Source of the DNA: an uncultured virus (IMG/VR IMGVR_UViG_3300029288_000156)
Taxonomy: Duplodnaviria > Heunggongvirae > Uroviricota > Caudoviricetes
Direction: 5' to 3' (one strand)
Length of the DNA stretch: 64,000 nt
IMG/VR virus record: IMGVR_UViG_3300029288_000156
Shown: one piece after another, positions 1 through 57,622 of the stretch
Layout: each line of letters starts with the position of its first letter
Position numbering within the stretch: the stretch's first letter is position 1
The notes under the pieces: model-generated
The model's database searches: none
Told to the model about the DNA's origin: nothing
The model's input: only the letters and a program-made list of their open reading frames with translations
Translations under genes and position numbers: made by a program

Positions 1-6
1 AGTATT

Positions 7-726
7 GTGTCTGAGATTGAAATAGGAGAGGGCGATAATTGGCGCAAGCTTACTCTCGACGCTATTGACTGGTTTGGTGAGGATGCACCTAGCCCGCTTG
101 GCACCGACAAATGGGACGACACTGATGAATGGGCAAGGCTCGCCGATATACTCTCCGAAAACATTTTGTGGGATGCAGACTGGGAACTTGCTGACGAAGT
201 GTTGGATTTGCATCCAGACAACAGGCAGGAATTTTACGACAAGATGGGAGTTGAAGATGATTATTTTATGACGATACCGCCAGAAATATCGAAAGAAGAA
301 GTCGATAAAGCAGTATCAACTATCAGGAGATTAACAAAAGATAGGAATCAAAATATGAAACGAAAACAATTGAAATGCTCTTGTGGATGGCCTAAATTCG
401 TGGTGAAAGCCGAAGTAGAGAACTTGAAGCTATCTAATGGTGTTGTGTCGGCGGATGTTAAAATCGTCCATGCTTGTAGACGATGCAAGAAAATTGCTAA
501 ATCGACCACAACTCATGGCGAATGCCAGATAGAACCAATTGATGCTACAAATCTATCTGTTCAAGTTATCCGAAGGGACAAGATCACTATGTATGCTAGT
601 GGTAGCAATTATCTCAAATATCGCATTTGCTTTGCGATAGTGAGCACTTGCAGCCATGGATACACTAAAGAGTGTTATCGCGGATTCTTCAAAGTGAGTG
701 AAAGAGAGAAACATGGCACGTTCTAA
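7..726 (+). CDS. hypothetical protein (acidic N-half, CxC/CxxC C-half); may be truncated by the window edge
   Basis: 239-aa ORF, no recognised family. Confidence 0.55.
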   Translation: MSEIEIGEGDNWRKLTLDAIDWFGEDAPSPLGTDKWDDTDEWARLADILSENILWDADWELADEVLDLHPDNRQEFYDKMGVEDDYFMTIPPEISKEEVDKAVSTIRRLTKDRNQNMKRKQLKCSCGWPKFVVKAEVENLKLSNGVVSADVKIVHACRRCKKIAKSTTTHGECQIEPIDATNLSVQVIRRDKITMYASGSNYLKYRICFAIVSTCSHGYTKECYRGFFKVSEREKHGTF

Positions 727-928
727 GATGATTATTTGCAAGAACCTCGAAGAGTCAGAAGCAGCAATGCGTGCATTAGGAGCGAAATTCGTCCGTATGC
801 AGGTTCCAGTTCCGTGCGAATTACATATCCGCATGGAAAGGATTAGACGAAGGGTTGACTGGAAGGCTATCGCTATTGAGGCATTCGAGCGTAAACTGGC
901 TGAACTTGAAAACACATCGAAGGATTAA
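713..928 (+). CDS. small ribbon-helix-helix-like DNA-binding protein
   Basis: VRMQVPVPCELHIRMERIRRRVDWKAIAIEAFERKL fits a strand-helix-helix pattern; GAGAG upstream of ATG 713. Confidence 0.45.
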   Translation: MARSKMIICKNLEESEAAMRALGAKFVRMQVPVPCELHIRMERIRRRVDWKAIAIEAFERKLAELENTSKD

Positions 929-952
929 TGACCTGTTTGTTCGTGCTATAAC
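925..952 (+). promoter_or_regulatory. phage early-type sigma70-like promoter
   Basis: TTAATG-N16-TATAAC with CGTGC immediately before the -10; motif recurs in the window. Confidence 0.6.
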
Positions 953-1102
953 TATTCGGAGGTCCCTATGAGAATCGAGACGCCCGAAGATTTCTTAGAA
1001 CGTCTGCTGAAAAACCTGATGCGTTTTTGACTTTCATTCTGTTCGTATTTCAGACCTAAAGGAATTTGAGTCTTTCGAACAGACAATCGACGGCTTGCTA
1101 TC

Positions 1103-1399
1103 ATGACTCAGATCGAACCACAAAGCGGATTTGTACACCGGATGATGCCACCGACTGATTGGTGTTGCGGTGGCATACCCGAGATATGCTACGACAAAAA
1201 CAAGACACACAATCAAATCCATACAGTGCTGGAGCAGTCATATCTGCAAGAAGAAAACATTCAGAGATTGGTAAAGTGGTTAGAGGAGCGAGACGGTGGT
1301 CCGAAGCAATCACATTTGCTGACAGCCAAGATACAACTAGAGATGCTGGCTGAGATTGATTCCGGTACAATATGGGTAGCGAACCAAATACAGGATTAG
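1103..1399 (+). CDS. hypothetical protein
   Basis: ORF in a co-oriented run of small genes. Confidence 0.55.
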   Translation: MTQIEPQSGFVHRMMPPTDWCCGGIPEICYDKNKTHNQIHTVLEQSYLQEENIQRLVKWLEERDGGPKQSHLLTAKIQLEMLAEIDSGTIWVANQIQD

Positions 1400-1406
1400 G
1401 AGATTA

Positions 1407-1610
1407 ATGGACGATTATTTCTTTACCAACTGTACCAAAGACCGTGCCCCGTTTATGCTCGAAGTGGCAGCAGAACTTGGTATTAAGATGCATACCGAAC
1501 CGGCCTACGATATTGACGACAACTTGCTCACAGAGCATGTCGCTATTCATCTTGATGAAGGTCTTGGCAATATGACGGAATTTTGGGCCAAGATGGCTGA
1601 AAGGCGGTAA
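1407..1610 (+). CDS. hypothetical protein
   Basis: AGGAG RBS before ATG. Confidence 0.65.
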   Translation: MDDYFFTNCTKDRAPFMLEVAAELGIKMHTEPAYDIDDNLLTEHVAIHLDEGLGNMTEFWAKMAERR

Positions 1611-1617
1611 AATAACA

Positions 1618-1863
1618 GTGTATGCTGGTGGCCCTTATCCTCTGACAGATAGCAAACACCATTTATGGCGAGCTTGGTGTTCTGAATGTGGGGAACCATT
1701 AAGAGTATCGGCCAACGTATTATTTAGGGATGACGGAAGTACCAGACCGCTCTTGTGTGATACATGTTTTCCGCATACTCCTCCGGCTGGCCATAATATG
1801 TTTAAAGATGATATGAGTCCTTGGCAAGAGAACGCAGTTAGACATATGGAAGACGGATCATGA
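1618..1863 (+). CDS. small Zn-finger protein
   Basis: CSECG...CDTC; stop overlaps next start (ATGA). Confidence 0.6.
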   Translation: MYAGGPYPLTDSKHHLWRAWCSECGEPLRVSANVLFRDDGSTRPLLCDTCFPHTPPAGHNMFKDDMSPWQENAVRHMEDGS

Positions 1864-2045
1864 GAGATATAGCACCCAGGGCGCGTATTGAAGACGACCG
1901 CAAAATCGTTGATGAGCTTTGCGTATGTGGCCGTCTGAAATCGAGCCACGACACGAGTGACTGCAAACAATTCAACTGGGTTTCGTTTAAACTGGAAGAT
2001 GGAACTTTCTGGCCAGACCCTTCACCAATTGTTCCGAGGGTTTGA
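1860..2045 (+). CDS. hypothetical protein (CxC..H..C)
   Basis: ATGA coupling to the previous ORF. Confidence 0.55.
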   Translation: MRDIAPRARIEDDRKIVDELCVCGRLKSSHDTSDCKQFNWVSFKLEDGTFWPDPSPIVPRV

Positions 2046-2050
2046 TGTAA

Positions 2051-2079
2051 TTGATGACCATTGGACGTCGTGCTATAAA
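2051..2079 (+). promoter_or_regulatory. promoter directly upstream of pentamer array A
   Basis: TTGATG-N17-TATAAA with extended TG; array starts at 2083. Confidence 0.65.
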
Positions 2080-2082
2080 ATA

Positions 2083-2170
2083 GTGACAAGCTTGGCCTTG
2101 ACTTGACGCCACCGGGCCGGACTAGATAAGTTTCGACAAAATGTGTCGCAACGGGACCACACAACACAAG
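2083..2170 (+). repeat. pentamer array A (17 NN-GAC-type units + AAG), putative guide RNA
   Basis: gtgac aagct tggcc ttgac ttgac gccac cgggc cggac tagat aagtt tcgac aaaat gtgtc gcaac gggac cacac aacac aag. Confidence 0.85.
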
Positions 2171-2180
2171 AATTATTTCT

Positions 2181-2396
2181 ATGAAACATTCTGCGTCAGC
2201 AGCCGCAGAGCGACGAAAGCAGAAGCGGCTGCTGACGCAGAATCGTACTCGTAGACTTCAAGGATGTTTCGGAAAGGTTAAATATCCAAGTAAATCGTCG
2301 GCAGAAGCGGTTGGCGGTATGACTGCATATAAGTGTCCAGATTGTAATAATTGGCACTTGACGCAACGCCACCTGATACCCCACGACCGATCTTGA
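2181..2396 (+). CDS. small basic phage Zn-finger protein (C..K..Y...Y.CxxC..WHLT type)
   Basis: CFGKVKY...AYKCPDCNNWHLT; 3' end overlaps array B. Confidence 0.7.
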   Translation: MKHSASAAAERRKQKRLLTQNRTRRLQGCFGKVKYPSKSSAEAVGGMTAYKCPDCNNWHLTQRHLIPHDRS

Positions 2397-2440
2397 CAGT
2401 CTATGACCCACCGCGACCGGACTCAACGCAACAAGACAAG
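2353..2440 (+). repeat. pentamer array B (17 units + AAG), putative guide RNA
   Basis: ggcac ttgac gcaac gccac ctgat acccc acgac cgatc ttgac agtct atgac ccacc gcgac cggac tcaac gcaac aagac aag, then TTTTTATT. Confidence 0.85.
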
Positions 2441-2474
2441 TTTTTATTCACTCGCAATCATAAGGAATCACAAC

Positions 2475-2562
2475 ACGTCGCATCTTGACCACATGGGACA
2501 CGCCATTTTAGCACGGCCCCTGACCGGCCCAGACTCGACCCGACTCGACCTCACAAGACAAG
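2475..2562 (+). repeat. pentamer array C (17 units + AAG), putative guide RNA
   Basis: acgtc gcatc ttgac cacat gggac acgcc atttt agcac ggccc ctgac cggcc cagac tcgac ccgac tcgac ctcac aagac aag. Confidence 0.85.
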
Positions 2563-2598
2563 CTTCATTTAGAAATAATAACGTCTACTACAATCAGT

Positions 2599-2676
2599 AT
2601 GACTGCACCCGACCAGTCACGACCTGACCCGACTCGCCGTTACGGTACCGGTCGTAACCCGACCTCCCAAGCCAAG
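2599..2676 (+). repeat. pentamer array D (15 units + AAG), putative guide RNA
   Basis: atgac tgcac ccgac cagtc acgac ctgac ccgac tcgcc gttac ggtac cggtc gtaac ccgac ctccc aagcc aag. Confidence 0.85.
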
Positions 2677-2683
2677 CTTTCTA

Positions 2684-2704
2684 TCATAATCGCGGCGATT
2701 ATGA
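2684..2704. terminator. hairpin after array D
   Basis: TCATAATCGC-G-GCGATTATGA inverted repeat. Confidence 0.45.
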
Positions 2705-2778
2705 GTTTCATTCTAACGAACATCATTAATTCACTAACGGCATATCAAAAACGCCAACGTATGCCTCGGTGCCCGCAA

Positions 2779-2806
2779 TTATAAATCACTTCGTTTGTGC
2801 TATAAC
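2779..2806 (+). promoter_or_regulatory. promoter upstream of array E
   Basis: GTGC-TATAAC -10 box; -35 weaker (TTATAA). Confidence 0.5.
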
Positions 2807-2808
2807 AT

Positions 2809-2898
2809 CAAATGCGACCAAATGCGACTCGACAAGCCGTTTTGAGACCCGGCCACCCGGCATCACAAGATGGGGCTCGACAGTCTACGACAGACAAG
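2809..2898 (+). repeat. pentamer array E (degenerate, two register slips)
   Basis: caaat gcgac caaat gcgac tcgac aagcc gtttt gagac ccggc cac ccggc atcac aagat ggggc tcgac agtct acgac agac aag. Confidence 0.75.
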
Positions 2899-2910
2899 CC
2901 CCATTTGCAA

Positions 2911-2939
2911 TTAATGACTAACCGCGTCGGTGCTATAAT
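2911..2939 (+). promoter_or_regulatory. promoter upstream of array F (and likely array G plus the RAMP gene)
   Basis: TTAATG-N17-TATAAT with extended TG. Confidence 0.7.
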
Positions 2940-2946
2940 CGAACAT

Positions 2947-3004
2947 GCAACGGGACGGGCCAGTACCGGCCACGACCACTTGAGACGGTATTCGACATGA
3001 CAAG
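2947..3004 (+). repeat. pentamer array F (11 units + AAG), putative guide RNA
   Basis: gcaac gggac gggcc agtac cggcc acgac cactt gagac ggtat tcgac atgac aag, then CGTTATTTT. Confidence 0.85.
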
Positions 3005-3030
3005 CGTTATTTTACCGAACAAACGACTTT

Positions 3031-3093
3031 CTACCCGCTCGGGCCTAGATGTGACCAGATTGGTCCGCCCTGGACGTGATAGACCAAGACAAG
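3031..3093 (+). repeat. pentamer array G (12 units + AAG), putative guide RNA
   Basis: ctacc cgctc gggcc tagat gtgac cagat tggtc cgccc tggac gtgat agacc aagac aag, then TTTCTTTGTTTCTTT. Confidence 0.8.
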
Positions 3094-3143
3094 TTTCTTT
3101 GTTTCTTTCTTTCTAACCCTGTGCTACTGGAGTGAGTACTGTT

Positions 3144-3731
3144 ATGATTACTGCTACTGTTCGTCTGAAAGGTGTTGCCCCCTACGGTCAGAGTCGCAAT
3201 TACGTCATGGACGTGCCGAAGAATGACAAGGAGCGTTCCGACGACTACGAGAAGCGAACTTGGCGCAACCGGCTTCACATTATGGCCACTGGCCCGCTTG
3301 AAGGCCATGTTTTCATCCCGCCGATGGCCTTCAAGAACTGCCTTGATGCGTCGGCGAAGTACATGTCGATGCAAGTGCCTGGAAAAGGAAAGGCGACTTA
3401 CACGAAGCACTTCGAGGCCGGTATCATGGTCGATCCCGAACCGATCGTCTTGCCCGATATCGCCGCAGACGTCGAAGGCATCTGGTTGTACGTTCCCAGC
3501 GACGGCAAGCGCGGCGGCAGCAAGCGCGTTTGGAAGTGCTTCCCCATCATCAAAAACTGGGAAGTTGACGTCGTGTTCCACGTCTTGGACGAGACGATCA
3601 CCGAGGAGATCTTCTTGAAGCACATTCAGGAGGCTGGTCGGTTCATCGGCATCGGTTTCTTCCGTCCGCGCAACAGCGGCTATTATGGCCGGTTCAGCGT
3701 GGAGAGCTTGAATTGGGTGAAGCAAGATTAG
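3144..3731 (+). CDS. stand-alone Cas7-like RAMP-fold protein (Vipr-like putative RNA-guided effector)
   Basis: N-terminal strand ITATVRLKGVAPY; FIPPMAFKNCL (cf. RAMP IPGSSLKG); C-terminal Gly-rich loop AGRFIGIGFFRP...GYYGRFSV. GGAG at 3129-3132 favours ATG 3144 over GTG 3132. Confidence 0.75.
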   Translation: MITATVRLKGVAPYGQSRNYVMDVPKNDKERSDDYEKRTWRNRLHIMATGPLEGHVFIPPMAFKNCLDASAKYMSMQVPGKGKATYTKHFEAGIMVDPEPIVLPDIAADVEGIWLYVPSDGKRGGSKRVWKCFPIIKNWEVDVVFHVLDETITEEIFLKHIQEAGRFIGIGFFRPRNSGYYGRFSVESLNWVKQD

Positions 3732-3755
3732 TACGCGAGCACAACAACGGCACGA

Positions 3756-3787
3756 ATCCTCCACCGGTCACTTGACCGGTGGAGGAT
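3756..3787. terminator. perfect 15-bp hairpin between the RAMP gene and array H
   Basis: ATCCTCCACCGGTCA-CT-TGACCGGTGGAGGAT, followed by GTTTGT. Confidence 0.6.
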
Positions 3788-3797
3788 GTTTGTACAA

Positions 3798-3860
3798 AGA
3801 ACTGCACTGGCCATGCCAAGACGAGACGTGACCGGATTAGTCTCGGCTCAACACGACAAG
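3798..3860 (+). repeat. pentamer array H (12 units + AAG), putative guide RNA
   Basis: agaac tgcac tggcc atgcc aagac gagac gtgac cggat tagtc tcggc tcaac acgac aag. Confidence 0.85.
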
Positions 3861-3892
3861 AAGCGTTTCATCATTTATCATTATTTACAAAC

Positions 3893-3955
3893 TCGACCGG
3901 AAATGACTGGATAACACTGGACCCGTCGAGACTGGTCGGGACAAGACAACACAAG
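3893..3955 (+). repeat. pentamer array I (12 units + AAG), putative guide RNA
   Basis: tcgac cggaa atgac tggat aacac tggac ccgtc gagac tggtc gggac aagac aacac aag, then TGCTTGTTTCTTT. Confidence 0.85.
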
Positions 3956-3992
3956 TGCTTGTTTCTTTACTAACCCTTTTGAGGAATTACAC

Positions 3993-4592
3993 ATGTCAGA
4001 AACCACAGCCACTCTACCCACGACTGCATCAACGATCACTCATCCGAAGAAGCCGAATACGATGATGAGCGAAGCGACGCGCGCTGTTCTTGGCATGTTC
4101 CGGCAACTCATAGAGTCGCCTGACATGACCATCAGCAGGGATGAACTGAGTGCAGCAATTGGCGAGGAAGTTAAACCAGGGAGTATCACGACAGCAGTCA
4201 GGCATATGCGTCGTGATCACAACATTACTGTCGAGTGGGACAGGATTTCGAAGGTATACCATCGTTCTGTCGGCGAGGACAATCTTATTCGACGAGCAGG
4301 CGATTTCAGATCTATTCGTCGCAAATCACGCATCGCTCGTGAGAAAATTGCGACATCTGGCTTTGAGAACATGTCTGATGAGCAGAAGATCCGGGCATGT
4401 GCGTACTCTAGTGTGTTTGGCGTCATGGCTCGTCTCGGTGAGTCAAGTAGCATAAAGAAGATCGAGAATCATGTCACCAAAGCGAATGTTGACGGCATTC
4501 CGATCGGTAACACTTTGTCGCTGTTTAATGAGCAGGCAGTGAAAGTGCAGGCGCAGCAGGGGCCACAAAATGGTGTACGGCCACAGAGCTAA
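3993..4592 (+). CDS. winged-HTH-like protein embedded in the array locus
   Basis: ISRDELSAAIG...SITTAVRHMRRDHNITVEWDRISKVY resembles HTH plus wing; GAGG RBS. Confidence 0.6.
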   Translation: MSETTATLPTTASTITHPKKPNTMMSEATRAVLGMFRQLIESPDMTISRDELSAAIGEEVKPGSITTAVRHMRRDHNITVEWDRISKVYHRSVGEDNLIRRAGDFRSIRRKSRIAREKIATSGFENMSDEQKIRACAYSSVFGVMARLGESSSIKKIENHVTKANVDGIPIGNTLSLFNEQAVKVQAQQGPQNGVRPQS

Positions 4593-4596
4593 TACG

Positions 4597-4654
4597 GCGT
4601 CACCATTCGACACCATGTGACTCGACCGATTAAGACTTGTCGATACAAGACAAG
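4597..4654 (+). repeat. pentamer array J (11 units + AAG), putative guide RNA
   Basis: gcgtc accat tcgac accat gtgac tcgac cgatt aagac ttgtc gatac aagac aag, then GTTTTT. Confidence 0.8.
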
Positions 4655-4681
4655 GTTTTTGCTGTATATGAAGGCTGAATT

Positions 4682-4927
4682 ATGAACATAATGCAGCTAC
4701 AGGCTTTGGTATCTTATCCATCGAATACCTCGAAGGGTGGGAATATCTATTACGAATACCACGACACGGCGATAGCCGACGAGTTGGTTGAAATGGGGAT
4801 GGTGGTCGGCGATTACACCCAGAACAGCCACGACCACAAAGCCTATAAGCGGTCAAAGAGGGGCGACCAATTGGTGGCCGAGTTGCTCGCCTTCGCCAAC
4901 AGACTCATGGAGGAAATCACTCCATGA
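4682..4927 (+). CDS. hypothetical protein
   Basis: ORF coupled (ATGA) to the next gene. Confidence 0.6.
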   Translation: MNIMQLQALVSYPSNTSKGGNIYYEYHDTAIADELVEMGMVVGDYTQNSHDHKAYKRSKRGDQLVAELLAFANRLMEEITP

Positions 4928-5232
4928 TGACCATCAAACCAGGATATTGTGCCTGCGGTAGACCACTCCACTATGTTAATAAGGATGTGGAGAAAATCGT
5001 CAAGCAGTATGCTCAAAAGCTCGGCGAGATGGTTGAAATCACGGCACCCTCCGGAACGTTTCTCGTGCAGCGCCACTACATTGCTCTGCATGGGGTTGAG
5101 GCGAAGGACCTCAACGGGCTAGCTATCGACGGCGTGGTCGAGAGAACGTCGAAGAAGCCACTCCACGTTCTAACTCCGGAAGAGATAATTGAACTCGAAA
5201 ATTGGTGCGGGCGAAAGAAGGAACCATCGTGA
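4924..5232 (+). CDS. hypothetical protein (CACG..H)
   Basis: GGAGG RBS. Confidence 0.65.
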   Translation: MMTIKPGYCACGRPLHYVNKDVEKIVKQYAQKLGEMVEITAPSGTFLVQRHYIALHGVEAKDLNGLAIDGVVERTSKKPLHVLTPEEIIELENWCGRKKEPS

Positions 5233-5555
5233 TTGTCGCTATTCTGAGAGAAATCCATTTCATCATCGACGAAGAGAAGCATAGCGTTGCATATGCCAAG
5301 CGGGCTATGGGATGCGTCGGCGTCCCGAAGAACCCATCTTCGCATTGGAAGGCGGTAATCGGCAACGACATGGATGACGCTGAGACCAAGCTACGAACAC
5401 AAGTTGTTTCATTCTTGCAACGGATGAACCTAGACCCAGCGGACTTCGAATTCAGTTATCGCCACACGGATGTGGACGAATTCGGGCAGTTTTGGCTGCT
5501 TGGTGATGGTGGCGGCATACACTCCGGACGTAATAGTATAGCAAAGAGGTCATAG
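5229..5555 (+). CDS. hypothetical protein
   Basis: GTGA overlap with the previous gene, AAGGA RBS. Confidence 0.55.
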   Translation: MIVAILREIHFIIDEEKHSVAYAKRAMGCVGVPKNPSSHWKAVIGNDMDDAETKLRTQVVSFLQRMNLDPADFEFSYRHTDVDEFGQFWLLGDGGGIHSGRNSIAKRS

Positions 5556-5887
5556 TGCCGGTGAGTGCAACACGTTACAATGGTAAGTTGAAGAAACAGA
5601 TCGCCGAAGAGGCGTTCAAGAAGTTCGGACCAACAGCATCGATCCAGAAGGTTGATGCATACTTTCGCAAATATGGACTGCCCTGCTGCGAGAGATCGAT
5701 GTACTGGGCATCAAGACGCAAGGCGGAAGGGCACGTTGTGCCGTTGCGGCGCAAATATCGTCGGAACAAAGAAAAGAAGGATTTGGTCGGTCTTATCGCT
5801 CGTACCAAGCAGCTTGCTTACGATCTGGGTGGTTACGACCAGCTAGAGGACCTCATAAAGGTTCTCAGGGATGATATAGCCACCTAA
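5555..5887 (+). CDS. basic hypothetical protein
   Basis: GAGG RBS, K/R-rich. Confidence 0.6.
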   Translation: MPVSATRYNGKLKKQIAEEAFKKFGPTASIQKVDAYFRKYGLPCCERSMYWASRRKAEGHVVPLRRKYRRNKEKKDLVGLIARTKQLAYDLGGYDQLEDLIKVLRDDIAT

Positions 5888-5902
5888 ATAAGGAGAGGTA
5901 AC

Positions 5903-6214
5903 ATGAGTGTCTTAGCTTGTGATCGGCGTAGCTGTCCAAATGTTATGTGCGACAGGCTTATCCTCGACGGGACGAGATATATCTGTAATGAATGCTGGCA
6001 AGAACTGCTCGAATACAAAGAGACTTGGCAGCCGCCGATGACCGCCCTGGAAATTGAAAACAAAATCAGGGAGTTCATGGGCACTAGCCCCGGCACCCAT
6101 AAAGCGGTCGAAACAGAGTGTGATATTGACGCTGAATTTCGACGTCTAACTGGCCAGGACAAGCACCACTTATTTAAGCACCATACAAGCACTCCTGATG
6201 ACTACAATCCCTGA
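5903..6214 (+). CDS. Cys-rich hypothetical protein
   Basis: AGGAGAGG RBS; C..C..C..CxxC. Confidence 0.65.
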   Translation: MSVLACDRRSCPNVMCDRLILDGTRYICNECWQELLEYKETWQPPMTALEIENKIREFMGTSPGTHKAVETECDIDAEFRRLTGQDKHHLFKHHTSTPDDYNP

Positions 6215-6560
6215 ACTTCTGAGCGACATGCTTGAGTCTAAGCCGTCGATAACGATCAAAGAAATAAAGGATCGTATCGAGCTTCTACGGCAGCAGCAGG
6301 GGACATCTATTTATCTTGATCATGGCGTTTTGTCTGCGGCATTAGAAGACAATCCAGACAAGTTCAAAAGGATCGATGACTGTACGATAGGAAGAGCAGA
6401 TCGCAATGAACACGCCATACACGATCTATCGAACGCGATGCGGCAATATGCCGACAGAATCGCATTCTTGACACCAGCCGGTGTTCTCAGCATCAAAGAA
6501 GTGCGTTATTGTTTGCACGATGATGCAATTTTGGTGAAGTTGGAACCGCAAGGCGATTAG
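6198..6560 (+). CDS. hypothetical protein
   Basis: 120-aa ORF converging on the next gene. Confidence 0.55.
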   Translation: MTTIPELLSDMLESKPSITIKEIKDRIELLRQQQGTSIYLDHGVLSAALEDNPDKFKRIDDCTIGRADRNEHAIHDLSNAMRQYADRIAFLTPAGVLSIKEVRYCLHDDAILVKLEPQGD

Positions 6561-8014
6561 ACGAAGCAGCGATTAAATCGTTGTCGTTCCTTCAAGACGA
6601 CGCCAGTGAGTTCTGTAAGATGACTGCTATAAAGCTCGTCATGGCCGTGAAGACCAACGGCACCATGGACGTATTCGTGAAGAGCCTTTGATAGGATAGA
6701 CCAACGTCCAGCCGGTGTGAATTTCCAGCGTTTCGCCATCGATCGACTATTATTGTTGTCTTGTTTAACGATCTGGATTGGATTGATGTAGTAGACGTCA
6801 CCATATGTGCCGTGTTCAAATTCAGCCGCCCTATCCTCGTCGAAAATGAAACCAACCGAGAACGTGGCTTCTTTGTTGAAGAGATCATGCAGAGCGAGCA
6901 TAACCGACGTCCAAATCCGCGTGAGTCTTCGACTATAATCACTGAATTCGCTTGGAAGATAATGTATAGGAATTTCCATCCCCGTCGTATTCTTGATGAT
7001 GAATTCGTGGTTGATTTTCGACTGTCGCCCTTGTTGTGTGGTAATTTTCGGAGGCGGCGCAAAATTTGTTTTCTGTTCTTCGAAGATGACCTCGCTCTTA
7101 TCCTCGATCTTCTTTTCTGGAAGAGTGGCATAAGCAGCGGCTACAATTTCGTGCATCGTTTCATGAGCCTTGGCGTGCTGGTTTGAAAGCTTTGCACCCT
7201 TGTAATGGATGTAAGCAGGCTCCGTGTCTCGAAGAGCAGAGAGCTTATTGACAGTAAGCTCGTCGATGAAGGCATCAAGCTGGCTCTGATACTCATGTTT
7301 GAGAGCATCGCGATTAGATTGAATGACCGACGCATCGCCAGCTTTCAATTCGACAACGACGCATCGCTTATTGCTGTCAACGTAGCGGTAGAACATCGGG
7401 ATGCCGTGAATGCGAACGATCATCCTGTTCGGAAATGTCTTGTTGGTATAGACGACGCCCCAGTCAAATTCGCGACGGCGCGAGCCTTTACGAAGCCCGG
7501 CTTCGAAGATCTGTCCGTTGACCTTGACGGTTCCGTTCCACTGGGCCATGTAGAGGAACTGGACGAGATGGTTGGTTAATACTTCTCTGACGTCACCTTC
7601 GATTGTCACTTTTGTCAGAGTGCCAGGATAGTAATGGTCACGCTCTTCAAGGGTGTAGTTACCGCCGCTGCCGACCACGTAAAAATGGCCAGTGTAGATT
7701 TCGTAATGAAGGTGGGCGAAGAGAAGTATCAGTTTGGCGGCACCGAAACCTCCAACGGTGCCTTGGAAATCCTTGCCGGATTCACCGAGTGTAAGCAGCT
7801 TGCCGACGAGTTCGTCCTTGCTCATAGGATCGCCATCGTTACCCCACGAGAAGACGGTATTTCCGTCTTTAATAACAAACCAAGCCTCGATATTCTTGGA
7901 ACGAGGGGCATCCATGCTGTTTTGCATGGCTTCCCGAGGCATAGCCCATCTCCAATCACGATAATCGTTAAGGGACTTCCGGAAGAAATGTGCACCGATT
8001 CCGACTGTGGCCAT
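6557..8014 (-). CDS. GHKL (HATPase_c/Hsp90-MORC-like) ATPase with C-terminal HExxH motif
   Basis: REAMQNSMDA, NDGDPM, GGFGAAK, PGT Bergerat motifs; LHEYVHG...GH near the C-terminus; start moved to ATG 8014, downstream of the promoter. Confidence 0.8.
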   Translation of the reverse strand: MATVGIGAHFFRKSLNDYRDWRWAMPREAMQNSMDAPRSKNIEAWFVIKDGNTVFSWGNDGDPMSKDELVGKLLTLGESGKDFQGTVGGFGAAKLILLFAHLHYEIYTGHFYVVGSGGNYTLEERDHYYPGTLTKVTIEGDVREVLTNHLVQFLYMAQWNGTVKVNGQIFEAGLRKGSRRREFDWGVVYTNKTFPNRMIVRIHGIPMFYRYVDSNKRCVVVELKAGDASVIQSNRDALKHEYQSQLDAFIDELTVNKLSALRDTEPAYIHYKGAKLSNQHAKAHETMHEIVAAAYATLPEKKIEDKSEVIFEEQKTNFAPPPKITTQQGRQSKINHEFIIKNTTGMEIPIHYLPSEFSDYSRRLTRIWTSVMLALHDLFNKEATFSVGFIFDEDRAAEFEHGTYGDVYYINPIQIVKQDNNNSRSMAKRWKFTPAGRWSILSKALHEYVHGAVGLHGHDELYSSHLTELTGVVLKERQRFNRCFV

Positions 8015-8047
8015 TGTGAATCCCCTGGTTGAGCGTTCTGATGTCAA

Positions 8048-8076
8048 ATTATAGCACGAGAATCTACCGCCATTAA
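8048..8076 (-). promoter_or_regulatory. promoter for the GHKL gene
   Basis: minus strand TTAATG-N17-TATAAT with CGTGC. Confidence 0.7.
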
Positions 8077-8106
8077 TCTAGAAAACAGCACTCATGGCGG
8101 TATAAG

Positions 8107-8135
8107 TTAATTCTGTATTTGAGTCGTGCTATAAC
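8107..8135 (+). promoter_or_regulatory. promoter for the lemA operon (divergent pair)
   Basis: TTAATT-N17-TATAAC with CGTGC. Confidence 0.7.
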
Positions 8136-8172
8136 CGGGAAATTTCAACTTCCCATTACTGGAGAAAATGTC

Positions 8173-8775
8173 ATGAAGGGTTGTCTTTGGGCCGCATTGG
8201 GTCTTGTGGGTGTTGCATTACTAGTCGTCGTCATCGCCGGGTTGTCGTGGTGGGGTTGTTATAGCACCCTCAATGTCGGGAACCATACGGCAGAAGAGAA
8301 GTTGGCCAATGTGGGATCTGCATTACAGCGTCGGCTTGACCTTACCCCCAATCTTGTCAGCGTCGTGAAGGGATATGCGAAGCACGAACATGACACTTTT
8401 GCTGACGTCACCAATGCACGTGCGAAGGTCGGACAGATCAATATTAATGCGGCTTCTGCTGACCCAGCCCAAATGAAGAAATTCGCCGAGGCGCAGGGAG
8501 ATCTGTCGTCTGCTTTGTCTCGCTTGATGGTGGTACAGGAGAAGTATCCGGAATTGAAGGCCAACGAAAACTTCAAGGACCTTCAATCACAGCTTGAGGG
8601 CACAGAAAATCGAATCAAGGAAGAACGTGATCGCTACAATAAAGCGGTCAAGGAACAGAATATCGCCATCGACGGCTTGTTCTCTGGCATTGTAGCAAGA
8701 TGCCACGGCTTCAAGAAGTGGGCTAGCTTCGAGGCGGTCGAGGCTGCGAAAACAGCACCGAAAGTAGAATTCTAA
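8173..8775 (+). CDS. lemA: LemA family protein
   Basis: N-terminal TM; QRRLDLTPNLV..VKGYAKHE; EKYPELKANENF..LQ.QLEGTENRI...R..YN. Confidence 0.93.
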   Translation: MKGCLWAALGLVGVALLVVVIAGLSWWGCYSTLNVGNHTAEEKLANVGSALQRRLDLTPNLVSVVKGYAKHEHDTFADVTNARAKVGQININAASADPAQMKKFAEAQGDLSSALSRLMVVQEKYPELKANENFKDLQSQLEGTENRIKEERDRYNKAVKEQNIAIDGLFSGIVARCHGFKKWASFEAVEAAKTAPKVEF

Positions 8776-8827
8776 GATTGTTGGCGATTTAGTTCGTGAA
8801 CTGAGGTTCGTCGGAGGCACTACTAAA

Positions 8828-9010
8828 ATGGTGGTCATTGAGTTCCACGCGACACCAGAAGAAGCTGCGGCCATCGACGAATTGTGTAAGGTGACAGAAC
8901 TTACACCGGAACAGATTTTAAGGCAAGGGCTGCGTCTGTATCAATCTGTCGCAAAAGGCTATACAACCGTTACTACCCCATTTCTAGGTGGCTGTGGAGG
9001 AGAAGAATGA
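8828..9010 (+). CDS. small hypothetical (RHH-like) protein
   Basis: GGAGG RBS, coupled to the next gene. Confidence 0.5.
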   Translation: MVVIEFHATPEEAAAIDELCKVTELTPEQILRQGLRLYQSVAKGYTTVTTPFLGGCGGEE

Positions 9011-9822
9011 GACGCAAACACGGTTTTACACTTGTTGAGTTGTTGGTAGTCATCGCCATCATTGGCATTCTAGCTGGGTTGCTGATTCCAGCGATTCAGA
9101 AAGCACGTGCCGCTTCTTCTGCGCCAACTCTGCGTGGCCCGGTGAACGACGATGCCAAGATTCTCACCGAGGCTCAAATCAGGAGTCTCAGTGATGTTCT
9201 TCTTGCACACGAGAAGAAGACAGGCAATCAGATAGTCATTCTTACTATCTCCACACTAAATGGCAGAGATATTAGCCAATTCGCTATTGAGACGGCTAAG
9301 TCTTGGAAACTAGGTCAGAAAGACAAGGATAACGGCGTCCTGTTTGTGATTGCAGTCAAAGAACACAAGACATGGATTGCCACTGGCCGTGGTATTGGCG
9401 ACAAGCTGACCGATGTTGTGTGCCGCCGTATTCTCGCTGAACAGGTGAAACCGCAATTCAAAGCTGGAAACTATGCTGGTGGAATCGAAGCAGCTATCAA
9501 TGCTATGCTAGCCCGTATTGAAGGGCGGGCGGAAGCTGAACAAAAATCCACGACCCCGCTCGCTGCGGCTGGTGCAGTCGCAGGGGCCGCAGCGGTTAGT
9601 TTTTGGCTTACTGGCTGGGGTATCGCTACGATTATACTCATAGCGATTGTTATCCTGATTATCGTTGCTATAGTAGCATCTAATAGTGGTGGTGGCGGTA
9701 TTTGTAGTGTGATCAGCGATATTGCTGGTAGTGGGGGTAGCAGCGGAGGCGGCAGTAGTGATAGTAGCTACTCTGGCGGCGGTGGCGATTTTGGTGGTGG
9801 CGGGGCTGGCGGAGACTGGTAA
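9007..9822 (+). CDS. TPM-domain (YgcG-like) membrane protein with type IV prepilin-type N-terminal leader
   Basis: HGFTLVELLVVIAIIGILAGLLIPAIQKARAA; VNDDAKIL...WKLGQKDKDNGVLFVIA...GRG..LTD; TM helix; GGGGDFGGGGAGGDW tail. Confidence 0.9.
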   Translation: MRRKHGFTLVELLVVIAIIGILAGLLIPAIQKARAASSAPTLRGPVNDDAKILTEAQIRSLSDVLLAHEKKTGNQIVILTISTLNGRDISQFAIETAKSWKLGQKDKDNGVLFVIAVKEHKTWIATGRGIGDKLTDVVCRRILAEQVKPQFKAGNYAGGIEAAINAMLARIEGRAEAEQKSTTPLAAAGAVAGAAAVSFWLTGWGIATIILIAIVILIIVAIVASNSGGGGICSVISDIAGSGGSSGGGSSDSSYSGGGGDFGGGGAGGDW

Positions 9823-9838
9823 CATTTCATAGGAGTTT

Positions 9839-10222
9839 ATGGTGGATAAAGTATCAATCGTCCAAGTTAAACGCGAGCACGAATCCCTCAGGAAATATTG
9901 GGATAAGTGGTACTGTCTGAATAAATCTGGCAGTGAATCGCTCTATCTACAACGAGACGGTAGTTGGAGCCATGTCTGCTTCTACTTCGATACGGAGCAG
10001 CAATTGCGGTCGCTGTTAACGCAGCATCATCCGAGTACTACAGTTCAGAGGAAGCCTGAACCTGAACATGAATCCGATTCGTTCAGATCGTTTTCGTCAT
10101 CCGACGACAACGATACAAGTAGCTCGCTCGATCTCGGCGGCTTGCTTGGTGGCGGTAGTGATAGCAGTTTTTCCGGTGGTGGCGGCGACTTCGGTGGTGG
10201 CGGAGCGGGCGGCGACTGGTAG
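9839..10222 (+). CDS. hypothetical protein carrying a copy of the TPM Gly-rich tail
   Basis: AGGAG RBS; ends SDSSFSGGGGDFGGGGAGGDW. Confidence 0.75.
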   Translation: MVDKVSIVQVKREHESLRKYWDKWYCLNKSGSESLYLQRDGSWSHVCFYFDTEQQLRSLLTQHHPSTTVQRKPEPEHESDSFRSFSSSDDNDTSSSLDLGGLLGGGSDSSFSGGGGDFGGGGAGGDW

Positions 10223-18691: not shown

Positions 18692-19642
18692 CTATGATAT
18701 ACCGAGCTGCTGTAGTTTTATCTCTAACTCTTTTCTTTCCCGTTTTCCTAGTGGCTTACCCCCCATTTGTTCTTCCGGATGTAATATTTTACGTATTTCC
18801 AAGATCTCCGGTTGGCTTAACGTCATAGCGTTAAGCTGATAATCCTCAAATGCCTCCCAAGCGAATGGGACAACGCCTTGAATGAGTTTCGCAATAGCAT
18901 TTGCGTATGTTCTGATTTCAAGTTGGGCATGGCTATCCATGCGTAAACCCAAGAAATGAAATAGATTGTTGCCGTCGATCTTCCAATATGCCTCGGTATA
19001 TGTGCTCAGCGGCAGATCTTTTCTGGCTTGCTCTCTGGCGATACCAGCATCAATCCTCTCCAGATACACTCGGTTAGCAAGCTCATGTAGCTCTGCTTCT
19101 CTCTTTGAGAGATATTCGCCAGTGAATTCGTAATAGGCTGCTGGGTCTGGGGGAGAATGCAGGTGTGCTGGTGCGAACTCACCAGAACCCTGCTTACGAT
19201 CACTGGCTTGTAGCCGCCATTGGTCGGCGCTTGTAACACTGCGGCTATCGATGGCTTCGCTATATCGTGTCGAATACTCATTCACGCTTGCGGTGCGATG
19301 TCGTATCCATTGACGCCAACAATCCATCGGAACGCGAACATGGAATTTGAACTCTACCATCTCTAACGGCGAAGTGTGTCGATGGCTCATCAAATAGCGT
19401 ATGAGAGATCTATCATCGCTGACAGCTTTTGTTCCAGCACCATAACTCACTCTGGCAGCTTGAACTATTGCTGAATCGTCGCCCATACGGTCGACAAGGC
19501 GAACAAAACCATCGTCTAGGCATTCGATCAGGCGACCGGTATTCATCGCATTCAGAAGACTGCGGAGCTTTTCACCAGTCGATAATCTGGTTTCTAAATC
19601 TTCGATATCGGGTAATGCATTAAGACGGGACAGAATGCTCAT
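18692..19642 (-). CDS. thyX: FAD-dependent thymidylate synthase
   Basis: AARVSY, HTSPLEM, RQWIRHRTASVNEYSTRY, EQARKDLP, HAQLEIR. Confidence 0.97.
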   Translation of the reverse strand: MSILSRLNALPDIEDLETRLSTGEKLRSLLNAMNTGRLIECLDDGFVRLVDRMGDDSAIVQAARVSYGAGTKAVSDDRSLIRYLMSHRHTSPLEMVEFKFHVRVPMDCWRQWIRHRTASVNEYSTRYSEAIDSRSVTSADQWRLQASDRKQGSGEFAPAHLHSPPDPAAYYEFTGEYLSKREAELHELANRVYLERIDAGIAREQARKDLPLSTYTEAYWKIDGNNLFHFLGLRMDSHAQLEIRTYANAIAKLIQGVVPFAWEAFEDYQLNAMTLSQPEILEIRKILHPEEQMGGKPLGKRERKELEIKLQQLGIS

Positions 19643-37766: not shown

Positions 37767-39134
37767 ATGTCAAAATATTGTAAATTCGGTCATATCAAGG
37801 GATCTGATCTAGACTGCCCAGCATGTAAGATATCTAGATATGTGAAAGAAAGACATAAAAATCCATCACTCGCTATGGTGGCTGCTAAAAATAAAAATTT
37901 TGTTAATCTACAATCAGAAGAAGCAAAAGCTAAACGTGAAGCATATTTTAAGTCTGATCTGCATAAATCAAGAGCACGAGAAAATGCATTATTGCTCGTA
38001 GCAAAGAGAAAGACTGGCGAGATCTCGCCGCAAATTAAGACACACGACACTAAACCAGAACTAGCTGTTGCTTCAACATTAGATGCTGCTGGTATAAGAT
38101 TTGTTAAACAGCAAGTATTCGGTCCATACACTTTTGATTTTTATTTGCCAGACTATAAGATATTACTAGAAGTACAAGGTGAATATTGGCATTCATTACC
38201 AAAGAATATAGCTAATGATTTGGCCAAAGCGGCATTTATAGAAAATAATTATCAGGACCTACATCTAAAGTATGTTTCTGAGAGAGAAACAATCACTAAA
38301 GGCCGACTAATAACAATATTAGGTGGTTTTATTGGAATCACCCAAGTTAATAAAGAAGACGTTGATTTGGCTATTTGCGAGGTTAAAATCATTCGAAGTG
38401 ATATCGCTAAAGATTTTCTAGCTAAGTATCATTACTTACCGAGATTTCGTAAGAATACCAAAGCCTGTTTTGGTGTATATTATACAGGAAAATTGATAAG
38501 CGTTGTTATCTTTGCGCAGCCGAGCTACAACACAGCAATTAACAGACATGGACTGGCAGCTTCCGCTGTAGTTGAACTATCAAGGTTCGTTATAAGTGAT
38601 AGCTATCATACAAAAAACTTAGCTAGCTGGGCTTTGAGTAGGTGCATACGATTGTTGAGGACCAGATATAGAGAAATTGCATTAATTATTTCGTTTGCAG
38701 ACCCACACTTTGGACATATTGGTACAATTTATAAGGCTAGTAATTGGATTTTTGACGGTAATACAAAGCCAAGTTATTATTATAAAGATTCGTATGGTGG
38801 TATAATTCATAAAAAGGTTATATGGGACCATGCACAAAAATTCGGCATATCTGAAAATAATTATGCTAATATGAATAATTTGATAAAAATCATAACGGAA
38901 CCAAAGAAACGTTTTGTATATTGGCTTACAAAGCCGAGTACAATTGCCAAAGGCACAATGCAGGTTAAAGCGACTTGTGTCGTTTGCAACGAAGAATTCC
39001 TTGTGTCAAAGAAGGCGCTAGATAGGGCGATGCTTAAGAACAATAGCTATATTTGTCATCCTTGTAGTGTGTCGCGCTGTTGGGATGGTGGTGTTTATGA
39101 GAACAGACCAAAGTCAACAAAAATCGATAGATAG
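37767..39134 (+). CDS. Vsr/DUF559-like PD-(D/E)xK endonuclease fused to Mom-like GNAT domain
   Basis: TKPEL...FDFYLP...LEVQGEYWH; FLAKYHYL...ELSRF...ASWALSR...ISFADP..GH.GTIYKASNW. Confidence 0.8.
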   Translation: MSKYCKFGHIKGSDLDCPACKISRYVKERHKNPSLAMVAAKNKNFVNLQSEEAKAKREAYFKSDLHKSRARENALLLVAKRKTGEISPQIKTHDTKPELAVASTLDAAGIRFVKQQVFGPYTFDFYLPDYKILLEVQGEYWHSLPKNIANDLAKAAFIENNYQDLHLKYVSERETITKGRLITILGGFIGITQVNKEDVDLAICEVKIIRSDIAKDFLAKYHYLPRFRKNTKACFGVYYTGKLISVVIFAQPSYNTAINRHGLAASAVVELSRFVISDSYHTKNLASWALSRCIRLLRTRYREIALIISFADPHFGHIGTIYKASNWIFDGNTKPSYYYKDSYGGIIHKKVIWDHAQKFGISENNYANMNNLIKIITEPKKRFVYWLTKPSTIAKGTMQVKATCVVCNEEFLVSKKALDRAMLKNNSYICHPCSVSRCWDGGVYENRPKSTKIDR

Positions 39135-39920: not shown

Positions 39921-40412
39921 TTATCGTCCGGAGCTCCCGAAACCAGCTTCTCCTCTTTGGTTGTATTTGTCGCTAAATTCCTCCACTTCGACAAAGGCAG
40001 CATTATATGCCTTATGGATTATAACTTGGGCGATTCTATCATGTTTATTGACATGATAGATAGTATCGCCGATATTCATGAGGCGAACCATCATTTCGCC
40101 GGTGTATGTTGAATCTATGATTGCATGAAAAGGTGCTACACAATTCAGATACATACTCGAACGGCCTTCCACAACCAGATAATGACCCTCTGGGCATACT
40201 ACAATTATGCCGGTCCTAACATTTGCTGTAGCATGTGGTTGGATATCTATTTCATCGATTGAATGCAAATCATATCCTGCATCGGTAGTGCGTTTGCGAA
40301 ATGGTACTTTCGCATCAGGATGAATTAGTTTGTATTCGAGGCGTACGTAATCGATGGGCCATTGACATAATATTGCCTTATCGGCGAGAGGAAATACCAG
40401 TGTTGGATTCAT
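39921..40412 (-). CDS. dut: trimeric dUTPase
   Basis: AGYDL, GRSS, IIDSTYTGE, RIAQ, RGEAGFGSSG. Confidence 0.96.
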   Translation of the reverse strand: MNPTLVFPLADKAILCQWPIDYVRLEYKLIHPDAKVPFRKRTTDAGYDLHSIDEIDIQPHATANVRTGIIVVCPEGHYLVVEGRSSMYLNCVAPFHAIIDSTYTGEMMVRLMNIGDTIYHVNKHDRIAQVIIHKAYNAAFVEVEEFSDKYNQRGEAGFGSSGR

Positions 40413-40428
40413 TTGTATTTCAGCTTGT

Positions 40429-40794
40429 ATGAATGATACTGATGATTTTGATGTCTCTCAACTGCGATGGTGGCGATGTGTTGCCACTGATACTGATAAT
40501 AAAATACAGACTTTCACTGCGGAGATCGACCCAGATCGCATCTACGCAGAATTTAATAAAATACGACGAGATTTGCAACAGAAGGGCTGGTGTTTCATCG
40601 AAGCCAAGCCAATTCCTGAAGAAGAACTTCTAGCAGCAGCAAAATTGTCGCGATTTAAGACACGCAAACGTGAGCAGTTACGTGGTCTTACTGGGCGGTG
40701 TTACTCTCCGCTTTCTCATTGGCCAGCCGCACTATTTGCTGTGCTATTTGTTGTGCTAATTCTATGGCTGGCGTATCACCATTTAAGTACTTGA
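40429..40794 (+). CDS. hypothetical protein with C-terminal TM
   Basis: ALFAVLFVVLILWLAY; overlaps the tmk 3' end convergently. Confidence 0.5.
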   Translation: MNDTDDFDVSQLRWWRCVATDTDNKIQTFTAEIDPDRIYAEFNKIRRDLQQKGWCFIEAKPIPEEELLAAAKLSRFKTRKREQLRGLTGRCYSPLSHWPAALFAVLFVVLILWLAYHHLST

Positions 40795-41401
40795 TGTGTT
40801 CGAGCGGCACATATCTCGATAACATCATTAGTGCTTCTGGGCTCAATGAGAGCAGATTATCATAAAGATCACCTACTCGTTTTAGAAGTTCGACGTTGTG
40901 GTCGTATCTATCTGATTTTGAACGATCGGTCGATTTATTCATACGCTCGACGATCGTTTCCCATCGATTCGATATGATAAAGACTCTATCTGGTGCAGGT
41001 GATTGCACAAGACCTAGTAGTTTATTGATAGCAGTTAGTTTTAAGCCTTCGGACACACCATAGACGATGCAACTGATATAATTCGATCTGTCAGCTAGCA
41101 TGACACCACCTTGCTCAAGGTGCGGTATCAGCTTGGTGTTGACGAAACAGCTGTGATCCACCATCATCATCATTTGGACCGACATATTATCGATCTCAAT
41201 AGGTGGCTCACCCGGTTCACTAAATAATTCAGGTTGTTTGACAAGCTTACGTAGATGCTTGCCGAGTGGAGTAGAACCAGGATGACGAGTAAGAATGCAG
41301 TTTAGCTCTGTATTTCGTAATTCCTCCATCACCAGATGAGCAAGAGTAGATTTCCCGGACCAATCGCCGCCTTCGAATACGACATATAATCCTTGATGCA
41401 T
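40688..41401 (-). CDS. tmk: thymidylate kinase
   Basis: VVFEGGDWSGKST P-loop, RHPG, ADR..S..VYG, PD. Confidence 0.93.
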   Translation of the reverse strand: MHQGLYVVFEGGDWSGKSTLAHLVMEELRNTELNCILTRHPGSTPLGKHLRKLVKQPELFSEPGEPPIEIDNMSVQMMMMVDHSCFVNTKLIPHLEQGGVMLADRSNYISCIVYGVSEGLKLTAINKLLGLVQSPAPDRVFIISNRWETIVERMNKSTDRSKSDRYDHNVELLKRVGDLYDNLLSLSPEALMMLSRYVPLEHIKYLNGDTPAIELAQQIAQQIVRLANEKAESNTAQ

Positions 41402-56462: not shown

Positions 56463-56464
56463 TA

Positions 56465-57610: not shown

Positions 57611-57622
57611 TTGATTTCCGTA

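Follow-up and report, generated by a model that had tools for sequence, protein, structure and literature searches.

VIPR systems are built around Vipr, a minimal RAMP protein that is mostly phage-encoded and accompanied by an accessory vap gene, and around vrRNAs, in which 9-16 units of a fixed triplet and two free bases (GGY/NN) precede a 3' tail and whose genes flank vipr and vap (bioRxiv 10.64898/2026.04.26.720920). One Vipr protomer is reported per unit, with the triplet hidden and the NN pair presented (bioRxiv 10.64898/2026.04.26.720927), and the NN pairs are described as pairing with double-stranded DNA such that one target base is skipped per unit, an alignment with the codon wobble position that serves as escape-proofing (bioRxiv 10.64898/2026.04.26.720920; 10.64898/2026.10.15.759431). 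The natural targets described are mostly coding, with the wobble position as the skipped base, and rival phages and satellites are thereby silenced at the level of transcription (bioRxiv 10.64898/2026.04.26.720920). The subject of the present analysis is a stretch of 64,000 nucleotides (nt) from an uncultured virus of the Caudoviricetes (IMG/VR record IMGVR_UViG_3300029288_000156), referred to in its entirety as the window, in which positions 2083-4654 very probably constitute the VIPR locus of an uncultured phage, comprising vipr, a winged-helix-like accessory gene and about 11 vrRNA genes. The region is filed under this name because all of the parts that can be recognised at the sequence level are present.

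Compared with the Type II VIPR systems of Escherichia phage SUSP1 and a P. fulva prophage, the locus shares a small RAMP Vipr with a G-loop and an adjoining DNA-binding-like accessory gene, vrRNA genes that lie on either side and point the same way, 10-16 units of fixed triplet plus NN, and an absence of self-targets; the vrRNAs checked in the discovery preprint have none (bioRxiv 10.64898/2026.04.26.720920), and in the 64-kb window, with the arrays masked, all nine guides that were read out equal their shuffled background. It differs in its fixed triplet (GAC instead of GGY), in its number of vrRNAs (about 11 versus four), in its 3' ends, which consist of two constant units and a U-run with no recognised pseudoknot tail, and in the confinement of the protein similarity to the C-terminal part (E=5e-6).

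Departures from the GGY scaffold have been described before. Alternative units NNNGG, YNNNG and NNNNG are named in the discovery preprint (bioRxiv 10.64898/2026.04.26.720920), and 21 non-canonical array clusters beside Vipr-like folds, including GAC/NN, CAC/NN, WGT/NN and TGH/NN, are mentioned in another (bioRxiv 10.64898/2026.10.21.760802), so that a GAC scaffold is not new as an observation. The arrays of the latter preprint resemble those of the window in the fixed GAC, the variable NN, the ten or so or more repeats and the adjoining Vipr-like fold; the clusters described there derive from an entropy screen, whereas a residue-level account of triplet reading is tentatively proposed here. 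The Cas7 backbone of class 1 CRISPR effectors (Csm3, Cmr4, type VII Cas7) shares the fold and, by homology, would share the guide-RNA filament and the thumb that breaks the duplex periodically, but the VIPR period is 5 with three bases hidden and that of Cas7 is 6 with one base flipped, and the present locus is phage-borne and has no CRISPR repeats. The kind of system, the wobble logic and the GAC variant are accordingly already contained in the 2026 preprints; what is added here is that triplets vary inside a single clade, that Vipr residues covary with the triplet, and that the NN pairs of a guide are either kept or replaced as a whole.

Array anatomy and encoded proteins

Read in a 5-nt register, the region 2083-4654 contains about 11 arrays of tandem units (NN + GAC), all on the + strand. 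The phased GAC score over 12 units reaches 30/36 on this strand, compared with 22 for both the 99.9th percentile of the window and the maximum of the - strand; the five clusters scoring at least 27/36 all lie within 2100-3959, the four clusters scoring at least 20/24 in an 8-unit version of the scan are likewise on the + strand and inside the array region, and GAC at period 5 gives the top score among 64 triplets and 8 periods over the whole 64 kb. A periodic GAC signal of this strength lies far outside what chance would produce. In units called from windows scoring at least 19/24, the information content is 0.87, 0.71 and 1.19 bits for G, A and C and 0.04 and 0.01 bits for the two N positions, the triplet values, though not the NN values, being inflated because the units were selected on the triplet. 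The nine NN strings listed in an earlier note on this DNA (A, B, C, D, F, G, H, I and J) were reproduced letter for letter, and a string comparison bears out its claim that all nine differ; vrRNA E is the element that the list had skipped.

Eight of the vrRNA genes (with E counted as one) lie upstream of vipr, two between vipr and the vap-like gene, and one after the latter. On the upstream side, vrRNA A (2083-2170 in the register print; 16 NN units, then the constant 3' units aaCAC aaG) is preceded by a -10-like box TGCTATAAA at about 2069-2079, and is followed by vrRNA B (2353-2440 in the same print; 16 NN units), whose true 5' end may lie further downstream because its first units overlap the end of an open reading frame (ORF) at 2181-2396. 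Next come vrRNA C (2475-2562; 16 NN units, the GAC tract being cleanest in the 3' half), vrRNA D (2599-2676; 14 NN units), vrRNA E (about 2814-2898), which a five-register print resolves into two short GAC tracts with a register shift after a GTGCTATAA box, vrRNA F (2947-3004; 11 NN units), which follows a GTGCTATAAT box, and vrRNA G (3031-3093; 11 NN units), directly 5' of vipr. Downstream of vipr lie vrRNA H (3798-3860; 12 NN units), vrRNA I (3893-3955; 10 NN units and three constant aa units) and vrRNA J (4597-4654; 10 NN units), the last units of which form a hairpin followed by a T-run, with a terminator-like site at 4636-4654. All of these genes are on the + strand.

The arrays have in common a 3' end of one to three constant units (aaGAC aaG or a sequence close to it; AAGACAAG) that passes into a T-rich run, and inspection by eye together with a terminator scan found a 3' hairpin in J alone. 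The GTGCTATAA box stands upstream of A, E and F, and looser -10-like hexamers precede the other arrays. A further terminator-like element, a GC-rich inverted repeat followed by a T-rich run, was read directly 3' of vipr (3758-3785, + strand); it is absent from the list of the consensus terminator scan and is kept, in both orientations, at 94-97% identity in L013, a contig of a sister phage that is represented by contigs L012 and L013. The small ORF inside the array region, between vrRNA A and vrRNA B (2181-2396, + strand), encodes a 71-residue zinc-ribbon protein with a CPDC motif (phrog_15216, E=1.2e-6) and is 80% identical in L012/L013, where the identity by codon position (55/71, 67/71 and 52/71) shows a coding pattern; the ORF is outside the published two-gene VIPR core.

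The vipr gene (3144-3731, + strand) encodes a 195-residue RAMP (Cas7-like) protein, the G-loop of which, GIGFFRPRNSGYYGRF, is conserved in 28 relatives. A Vipr protein is defined as a minimal RAMP composed of an RRM core, a G-loop and a thumb. A profile of these 28 proteins matches PDB 36pp_D, annotated as 'SUSP1 Vipr protein', with E=1e-8, and the single sequence does so with E=5.3e-6 in an alignment that spans the G-loop and the preceding strands. The AlphaFold 2 model of the protein has a predicted local distance difference test score (pLDDT) of 94.6, and the best Foldseek matches of this model are type VII Cas7 and type III Csm3 (E down to 2e-8; 154 matches at E<=1e-3). Homologues number 2210, the corresponding PHROG is of function not known, and the ORF has no Pfam domain.

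The vap-like gene (3993-4592, + strand) encodes a 199-residue protein whose N-terminal half is winged-helix-like: residues 27-91 are modelled as helix-strand-helix-helix-strand-strand with a pLDDT of about 83-93, and Foldseek gives weak matches (best E=1.5e-3), mostly to winged-helix regulators, MarR, DtxR and Fur among them. Of the seven published VIPR types, types II, VI and VII have a DNA-binding vap product. No Pfam, PHROG or PDB sequence match was obtained, and the ORF used as bait found no relatives in viral_contigs. Weak homologues (E from 3e-8 to 1e-3; about 160-200 residues), from which a 13-row alignment was built, occur in 17 loci besides the window and L012/L013, and they adjoin vipr in the loci examined for position. 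The arrays and their anatomy, the homology and fold of Vipr, and synteny over some 90 related loci are matters of direct observation.

Guide exchange between sister phages and triplet covariation

The Vipr of the sister phage is 88% identical to that of the window, where vipr is intact. In the four guides retained in L013 (B, C, F and G), 93 of 106 NN positions are identical, compared with 129 of 159 triplet positions and 273 of 359 positions in non-array intergenic DNA. In A and D, by comparison, NN identity falls to 20/52, near the 25% of unrelated sequence, while 48 of 78 triplet positions agree. The retained guides show NN identities of 25/32 (B), 29/32 (C, with 41/48 triplet positions), 21/22 in an ungapped scan or 19/20 in the alignment (F) and 20/22 (G), and vrRNA H, compared with L012, of 22/24. 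At A, the promoter box is the same in L013 but the guide behind it is another, shorter one (NN 11/24), and at D the NN pairs are replaced (9/28; triplet positions 27/42). Pooled over these six arrays, NN and triplet positions do not differ (113/158 versus 177/237; Fisher p=0.49); the signal resides in the bimodality, with each guide either kept or replaced whole, which is the behaviour expected of guides and not of a mere spacer. It is the NN, not the GAC, that carries what the sister phages conserve or swap.

Differences between strains also take the form of whole cassettes. vrRNA E is conserved in L013 with an extra cassette following it, and L013 carries extra array cassettes. Contigs of sequencing runs X2 and X3 skip or replace the blocks 2305-2474, 2570-2712 and 2807-2929 (121-168 nt; at 80% likeness, and to be read with care), each of which corresponds to one vrRNA cassette (B, D and E, respectively), and this suggests that co-occurring strains differ by whole guides. 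Contigs with identical sequence are found in runs that belong to more than one study.

The relatives of the locus extend these comparisons to the fixed triplet. All of the first 12 viral loci found via a Vipr homologue adjoin 5-nt arrays (12/12), the triplets of which differ, and a second homologue scan gave 309 relatives, from which 80 loci were kept. Among the 93 sources examined (92 locus entries, in which one contig is entered twice, and the window), 84 have at least six windows scoring at least 19/24 for one triplet, namely GGC in 48, CGC in 17, GAC in 13, and GTT, GTC and CTC in two each. By these counts, the canonical GGY is the majority state of the protein clade and GAC one of several variants.

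A comparison of 70 non-identical Viprs, numbered as in the window, indicates that three residues vary with the triplet. Position 172 is Arg and position 113 is Glu in all 38 GGC Viprs; the 15 CGC Viprs all have Arg 172, with Glu (12), Val (2) or Lys (1) at position 113, and Arg 172 is likewise present in both GTC Viprs (position 113: one Glu, one Asp) and both GTT Viprs (Glu in both). Among the 11 GAC Viprs, position 172 is Phe in 7, Ser in 1 and Arg in 3, and position 113 is Ile, Leu, Met or Gln in 8 and Glu in 3; the two CTC Viprs have Thr 172 and Asn 113. In addition, 6 of the 8 re-coded GAC Viprs have Gly in place of Ser at position 16, in the PY(S/G)QSR strand, and the GGC, CGC, GTC and GTT systems mostly retain Ser 16, Glu 113 and Arg 172. 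In the alignment with the SUSP1 protein, D177 falls on position 172 (Phe 172 in the window), W178 on 173, R179 on 174, and R138 on Phe 133; D177, W178 and R179 are G-loop residues described as touching the triplet in the solved complex (bioRxiv 10.64898/2026.04.26.720927).

On this basis, Glu 113 and Arg 172 would read a keto base (G or U) at the second triplet position, and an adenine at that position would call for a hydrophobic pocket. That the fixed triplet of the vrRNA is evolvable, and re-coded together with a small pocket of Vipr, is a tentative proposal that we regard as possible but rather doubtful. A quick tree of the Vipr proteins needs 1 to 7 changes to GAC, which is compatible with a single origin as well as with several. 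Three GAC-type loci (L073, L040 and L044) retain the GGC-type combination of Ser 16, Glu 113 and Arg 172, and in L040, L064 and L075 both GGC and GAC arrays lie beside one vipr, as judged from the counts of the second-best triplet. In cases of the L040/L044/L073 type, either GRC is accepted by the proteins or the vrRNAs in the loci are of foreign origin.

Array architecture also varies among the relatives. In L004 (10580-11210), L007 (11085-11450) and L002 (11070-11770), hairpins that differ in sequence and keep their pairing stand between the units, as do boxes that are -10-like or palindromic (GGTGATYATGKCACC in L004 being one of them); the architecture and tail of these arrays differ from those of the window.

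Target searches and rival explanations

By homology with the solved SUSP1 system, arrays A-J would be transcribed as separate small RNAs, each with 10-16 units of a fixed GAC and two free bases and ending in the constant units and a U-rich stretch. In a VIPR system the vrRNAs are expected as RNAs of roughly 100 nt that co-purify with Vipr. Vipr protomers would polymerise along the vrRNA, one per unit, burying the GAC and leaving the NN pairs exposed on the filament, which may then bind double-stranded DNA that matches the NN pairs with one base, typically the codon wobble position, skipped between them. The gapped R-loop thus formed would block transcription of a rival phage, a satellite or another mobile element. 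For the GAC clade, the putative filament and 1-nt skip rule are carried over from solved homologues and not from data of this locus.

The earlier note had likewise taken the NN strings for gapped guides that tolerate change at a skipped wobble base. This core idea is partly supported, because such a code has been published for homologous VIPR systems and the defining Vipr gene is present here, although no target was found for the locus. Local scans were run with the nine guides, skips of 0-3 nt and controls with shuffled NN order. No guide rose above the shuffled background in the masked window and L001-L012 or in 90 related loci (2.6 M positions), nor did any of the 234 guides called in all loci when compared with all loci, and 4- and 5-unit sub-seeds in 3.5 M positions gave z from -1.1 to +0.1. 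The only local matches above background were at skip 3, and these are the orthologous vrRNAs of the sister phage. The note had named the absence of hits above a shuffled-NN background at every gap size as what would refute its idea, and none was obtained at gaps of 0-3 in the window, the 90 loci or the 3.5 Mb covered by sub-seeds; by that standard the idea would be refuted, but the databases probably do not contain the targets.

Larger collections were scanned with exact 3' units of guides B, C, D, H and I at a skip of 1 nt, the 3' eight or nine units being used as seeds because R-loops of SUSP1 are reported to grow from the 3' end (bioRxiv 10.64898/2026.04.26.720927). The 9-unit seed of C had no match in viral_contigs and 9 in metagenome_contigs, with an upstream extension of 3-6/14 where 3.5 is expected. 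The 8-unit seeds matched viral contigs 48 times for B (best extension 8/16), 7 times for D (6/12), 36 times for I (3/4) and 9 times, 3 of them distinct, for H (3/8). All of these extensions are at chance level: two loci reach 19/20 NN for I, and about two such loci are expected by chance, an estimate scaled from the match counts of D and H. None of the 109 seed loci is matched by a second guide.

The excess of matches for B and I arises because each of the two seeds falls, in wobble phase, on a peptide motif that is common. The seed of B spells, on the opposite strand, A[DE]RAG[IM]L[NK] (the AERAGILN motif), and the 40 B-matched ORFs examined comprise 20 D5-type primase-helicases (D5_N/DUF5906), 4 tape-measure proteins and 16 proteins without a family. 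The seed of I spells [IM][CW][KN][CW]P[DE][CW]G, a CPxCG zinc knuckle, and the 25 I-matched ORFs examined include 2 TnpB-type proteins, 2 terminase large subunits and, for the most part, small zinc-knuckle proteins. When phase is taken from the longest ORF (80 codons or more) that covers the match, 30/41 matches of B, 13/25 of I, 2/7 of C, 1/6 of D and 2/3 of H are in wobble phase; the counts for B and I represent few independent events, because the matches belong to homologous families. The zinc-ribbon reading of guide I in the earlier note is forced by the letters of the seed, although the matches do fall partly in real zinc-knuckle ORFs, 13 of 25 being in wobble phase. The motif matches of B and I are suggestive of guides drawn from coding sequence, short of a demonstration, and guide B may be aimed at the AERAGILN region of the D5-type primase-helicase of an unsequenced satellite or phage. 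In L244 (IMGVR_UViG_3300037067_013147), from the same metagenome as the contig of the sister phage, a fragment of a TnpB-type zinc-ribbon/RuvC gene (18-281) matches guide I at 17/20 NN in frame, one mismatch being a synonymous Arg codon, which is within chance expectation.

Several observations weigh against the assignment of the region as a VIPR locus. At the sequence level, only the C-terminal 70-90 residues resemble the SUSP1 Vipr; inspection by eye and the terminator scan, the only means applied, revealed no structured 3' tail comparable to the pseudoknot of SUSP1; and the promoter-like boxes are a weak signal, with 6 found by a consensus scan compared with 2.9 +/- 1.6 in shuffles. The lack of a target at any skip length locally and in the five seed scans counts on the same side, as does the pooled NN composition, which fits codon positions 1-2 no better than positions 2-3 or background and, compared with codon-position models, rejects positions 3-1 only.

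Fixed triplets with 2-nt spacers are not unique to VIPR. The TRAP protein of B. subtilis reads GAG/UAG triplets separated by 2-nt spacers, in RNA sites of about 11 repeats, and the present arrays could by analogy be attenuation or sponge RNAs in which a ring protein reads GAC and regulates the downstream genes, with the NN meaningless. The shared 3+2 periodicity, the location of the arrays on the same strand as the genes, and the position of several of them just 5' of ORFs with Shine-Dalgarno-like sites agree with this explanation, and a TRAP-like ring protein was in fact the first reading, dropped after the Vipr profile matched 36pp_D. The resemblance is, however, formal only: the Pfam scan of the 79 ORFs of the window found no TRAP-family or other ring RNA-binding domain, nor did the PHROG scan, the conserved neighbour is a RAMP/Vipr homologue, several arrays precede another array and not a regulated gene or operon, and in the retained guides the NN spacers are more conserved than the triplet (fractions given above) and so carry information, the opposite of a meaningless spacer. 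TRAP-like regulation is consequently considered highly improbable. The same low weight is given to a role at the DNA level, in which iterons, a centromere-like or packaging site, or promoter arrays would be bound by a protein that reads GAC every 5 bp. Such a role could draw on the winged-helix-like protein encoded in the locus and on the location of the arrays in a seemingly early region with -10-like boxes, but it is contradicted by the strict strand asymmetry (no cluster on the - strand), by a 5-bp period that would place successive sites on opposite faces of B-DNA, by the hairpins and -10 boxes that split the units of relatives in the manner of small transcription units, and by the homologous arrays of SUSP1, which are described as RNAs (bioRxiv 10.64898/2026.04.26.720920).

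The VIPR locus could, finally, be a degenerate or orphaned remnant, its guides having no living targets or the system being inactive. The failure of every search to find a target and the many units that depart from GAC (0.7-1.2 bits per triplet position) are in keeping with decay. The intact vipr, with its close counterpart in the sister phage, the conservation of the NN of four guides above the intergenic background, and the identical sequence in contigs from more than one study all argue for a maintained system, however, and the databases searched were small or were searched with exact seeds only. Internal degeneracy of vrRNAs is, moreover, reported as usual (bioRxiv 10.64898/2026.04.26.720920). 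A remnant is thus judged very unlikely. A CRISPR-Cas system was considered as well and rejected: Rfam recognised no family across the whole window, a tandem repeat finder applied to positions 1-10000 returned short 4- and 10-nt periods only and no CRISPR repeat-spacer array, and no Cas-named Pfam family was found in the 79 ORFs. The window also contains no tRNAs.

Phage context and implications

The window is phage-like in its gene content, with Mom-family proteins, ThyX, dUTPase, thymidylate kinase, fibre-like giants and HNH endonucleases, and its DNA turns up in metagenome runs from landfill and groundwater, with no RNA run listed among those that contain it. Isolate phages gave no DNA match to the window, and the only isolate match to the Vipr-like protein is in Phage DSL-LC04, at 29% identity. 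A Planctomycetota host, as envisaged in the earlier note, finds no support, the best named relatives of a host-like gene being at most 47% identical and none of 79 labelled Planctomycetota. The genes at 8119-9819, a cluster encoding a LemA protein, a small ribbon-helix-helix protein and a TPM-domain protein with a prepilin-type N-terminal methylation motif, look host-derived; the TPM protein (9007-9819) has homologues at 64-75% identity on contigs of 184-364 kb and at no more than 47% in species-representative genomes, spread across Bacteroidota, Spirochaetota, Proteobacteria and others.

Modification of the phage's own DNA bases is probable. The genes at 37767-39131, 41438-42958, 63596-63844, 18695-19642, 39924-41401 and 45249-46166 are relevant here: the window encodes three Mom-family proteins, two of them fused to Vsr/HNH-like or GNAT-like parts, together with ThyX, dUTPase, thymidylate kinase and a protein of the adenosine-deaminase family. 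Four consecutive large proteins on the - strand (51703-60709; 535, 1052, 381 and 1028 residues), with DUF6923, Laminin_G_3 and DUF2341 domains, look like paralogous fibre or adhesin proteins.

VIPR is a discovery only months old, in which RNA-guided recognition of DNA, a gapped code and a proposed ancestor of the CRISPR backbones come together. The present locus leaves the picture of how VIPR works unchanged; as an environmental example it is well resolved, and it stands out for the size of its guide set (about 11, unusually large) and for a GAC scaffold that is non-canonical. The variation of the triplet within the clade, its covariation with Vipr residues and the keeping or replacing of whole guides make it possible to test how Vipr reads the triplet and whether a switch of scaffold creates orthogonal VIPR systems, which could serve multiplexed programmable repression. 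If Glu 113 and Arg 172 do read a keto base at the second triplet position, the switch to GAC would make Vipr and its vrRNAs orthogonal to those of rivals of the GGY type, and the phage would thereby escape the hijacking that satellites are reported to carry out with solo vrRNAs.

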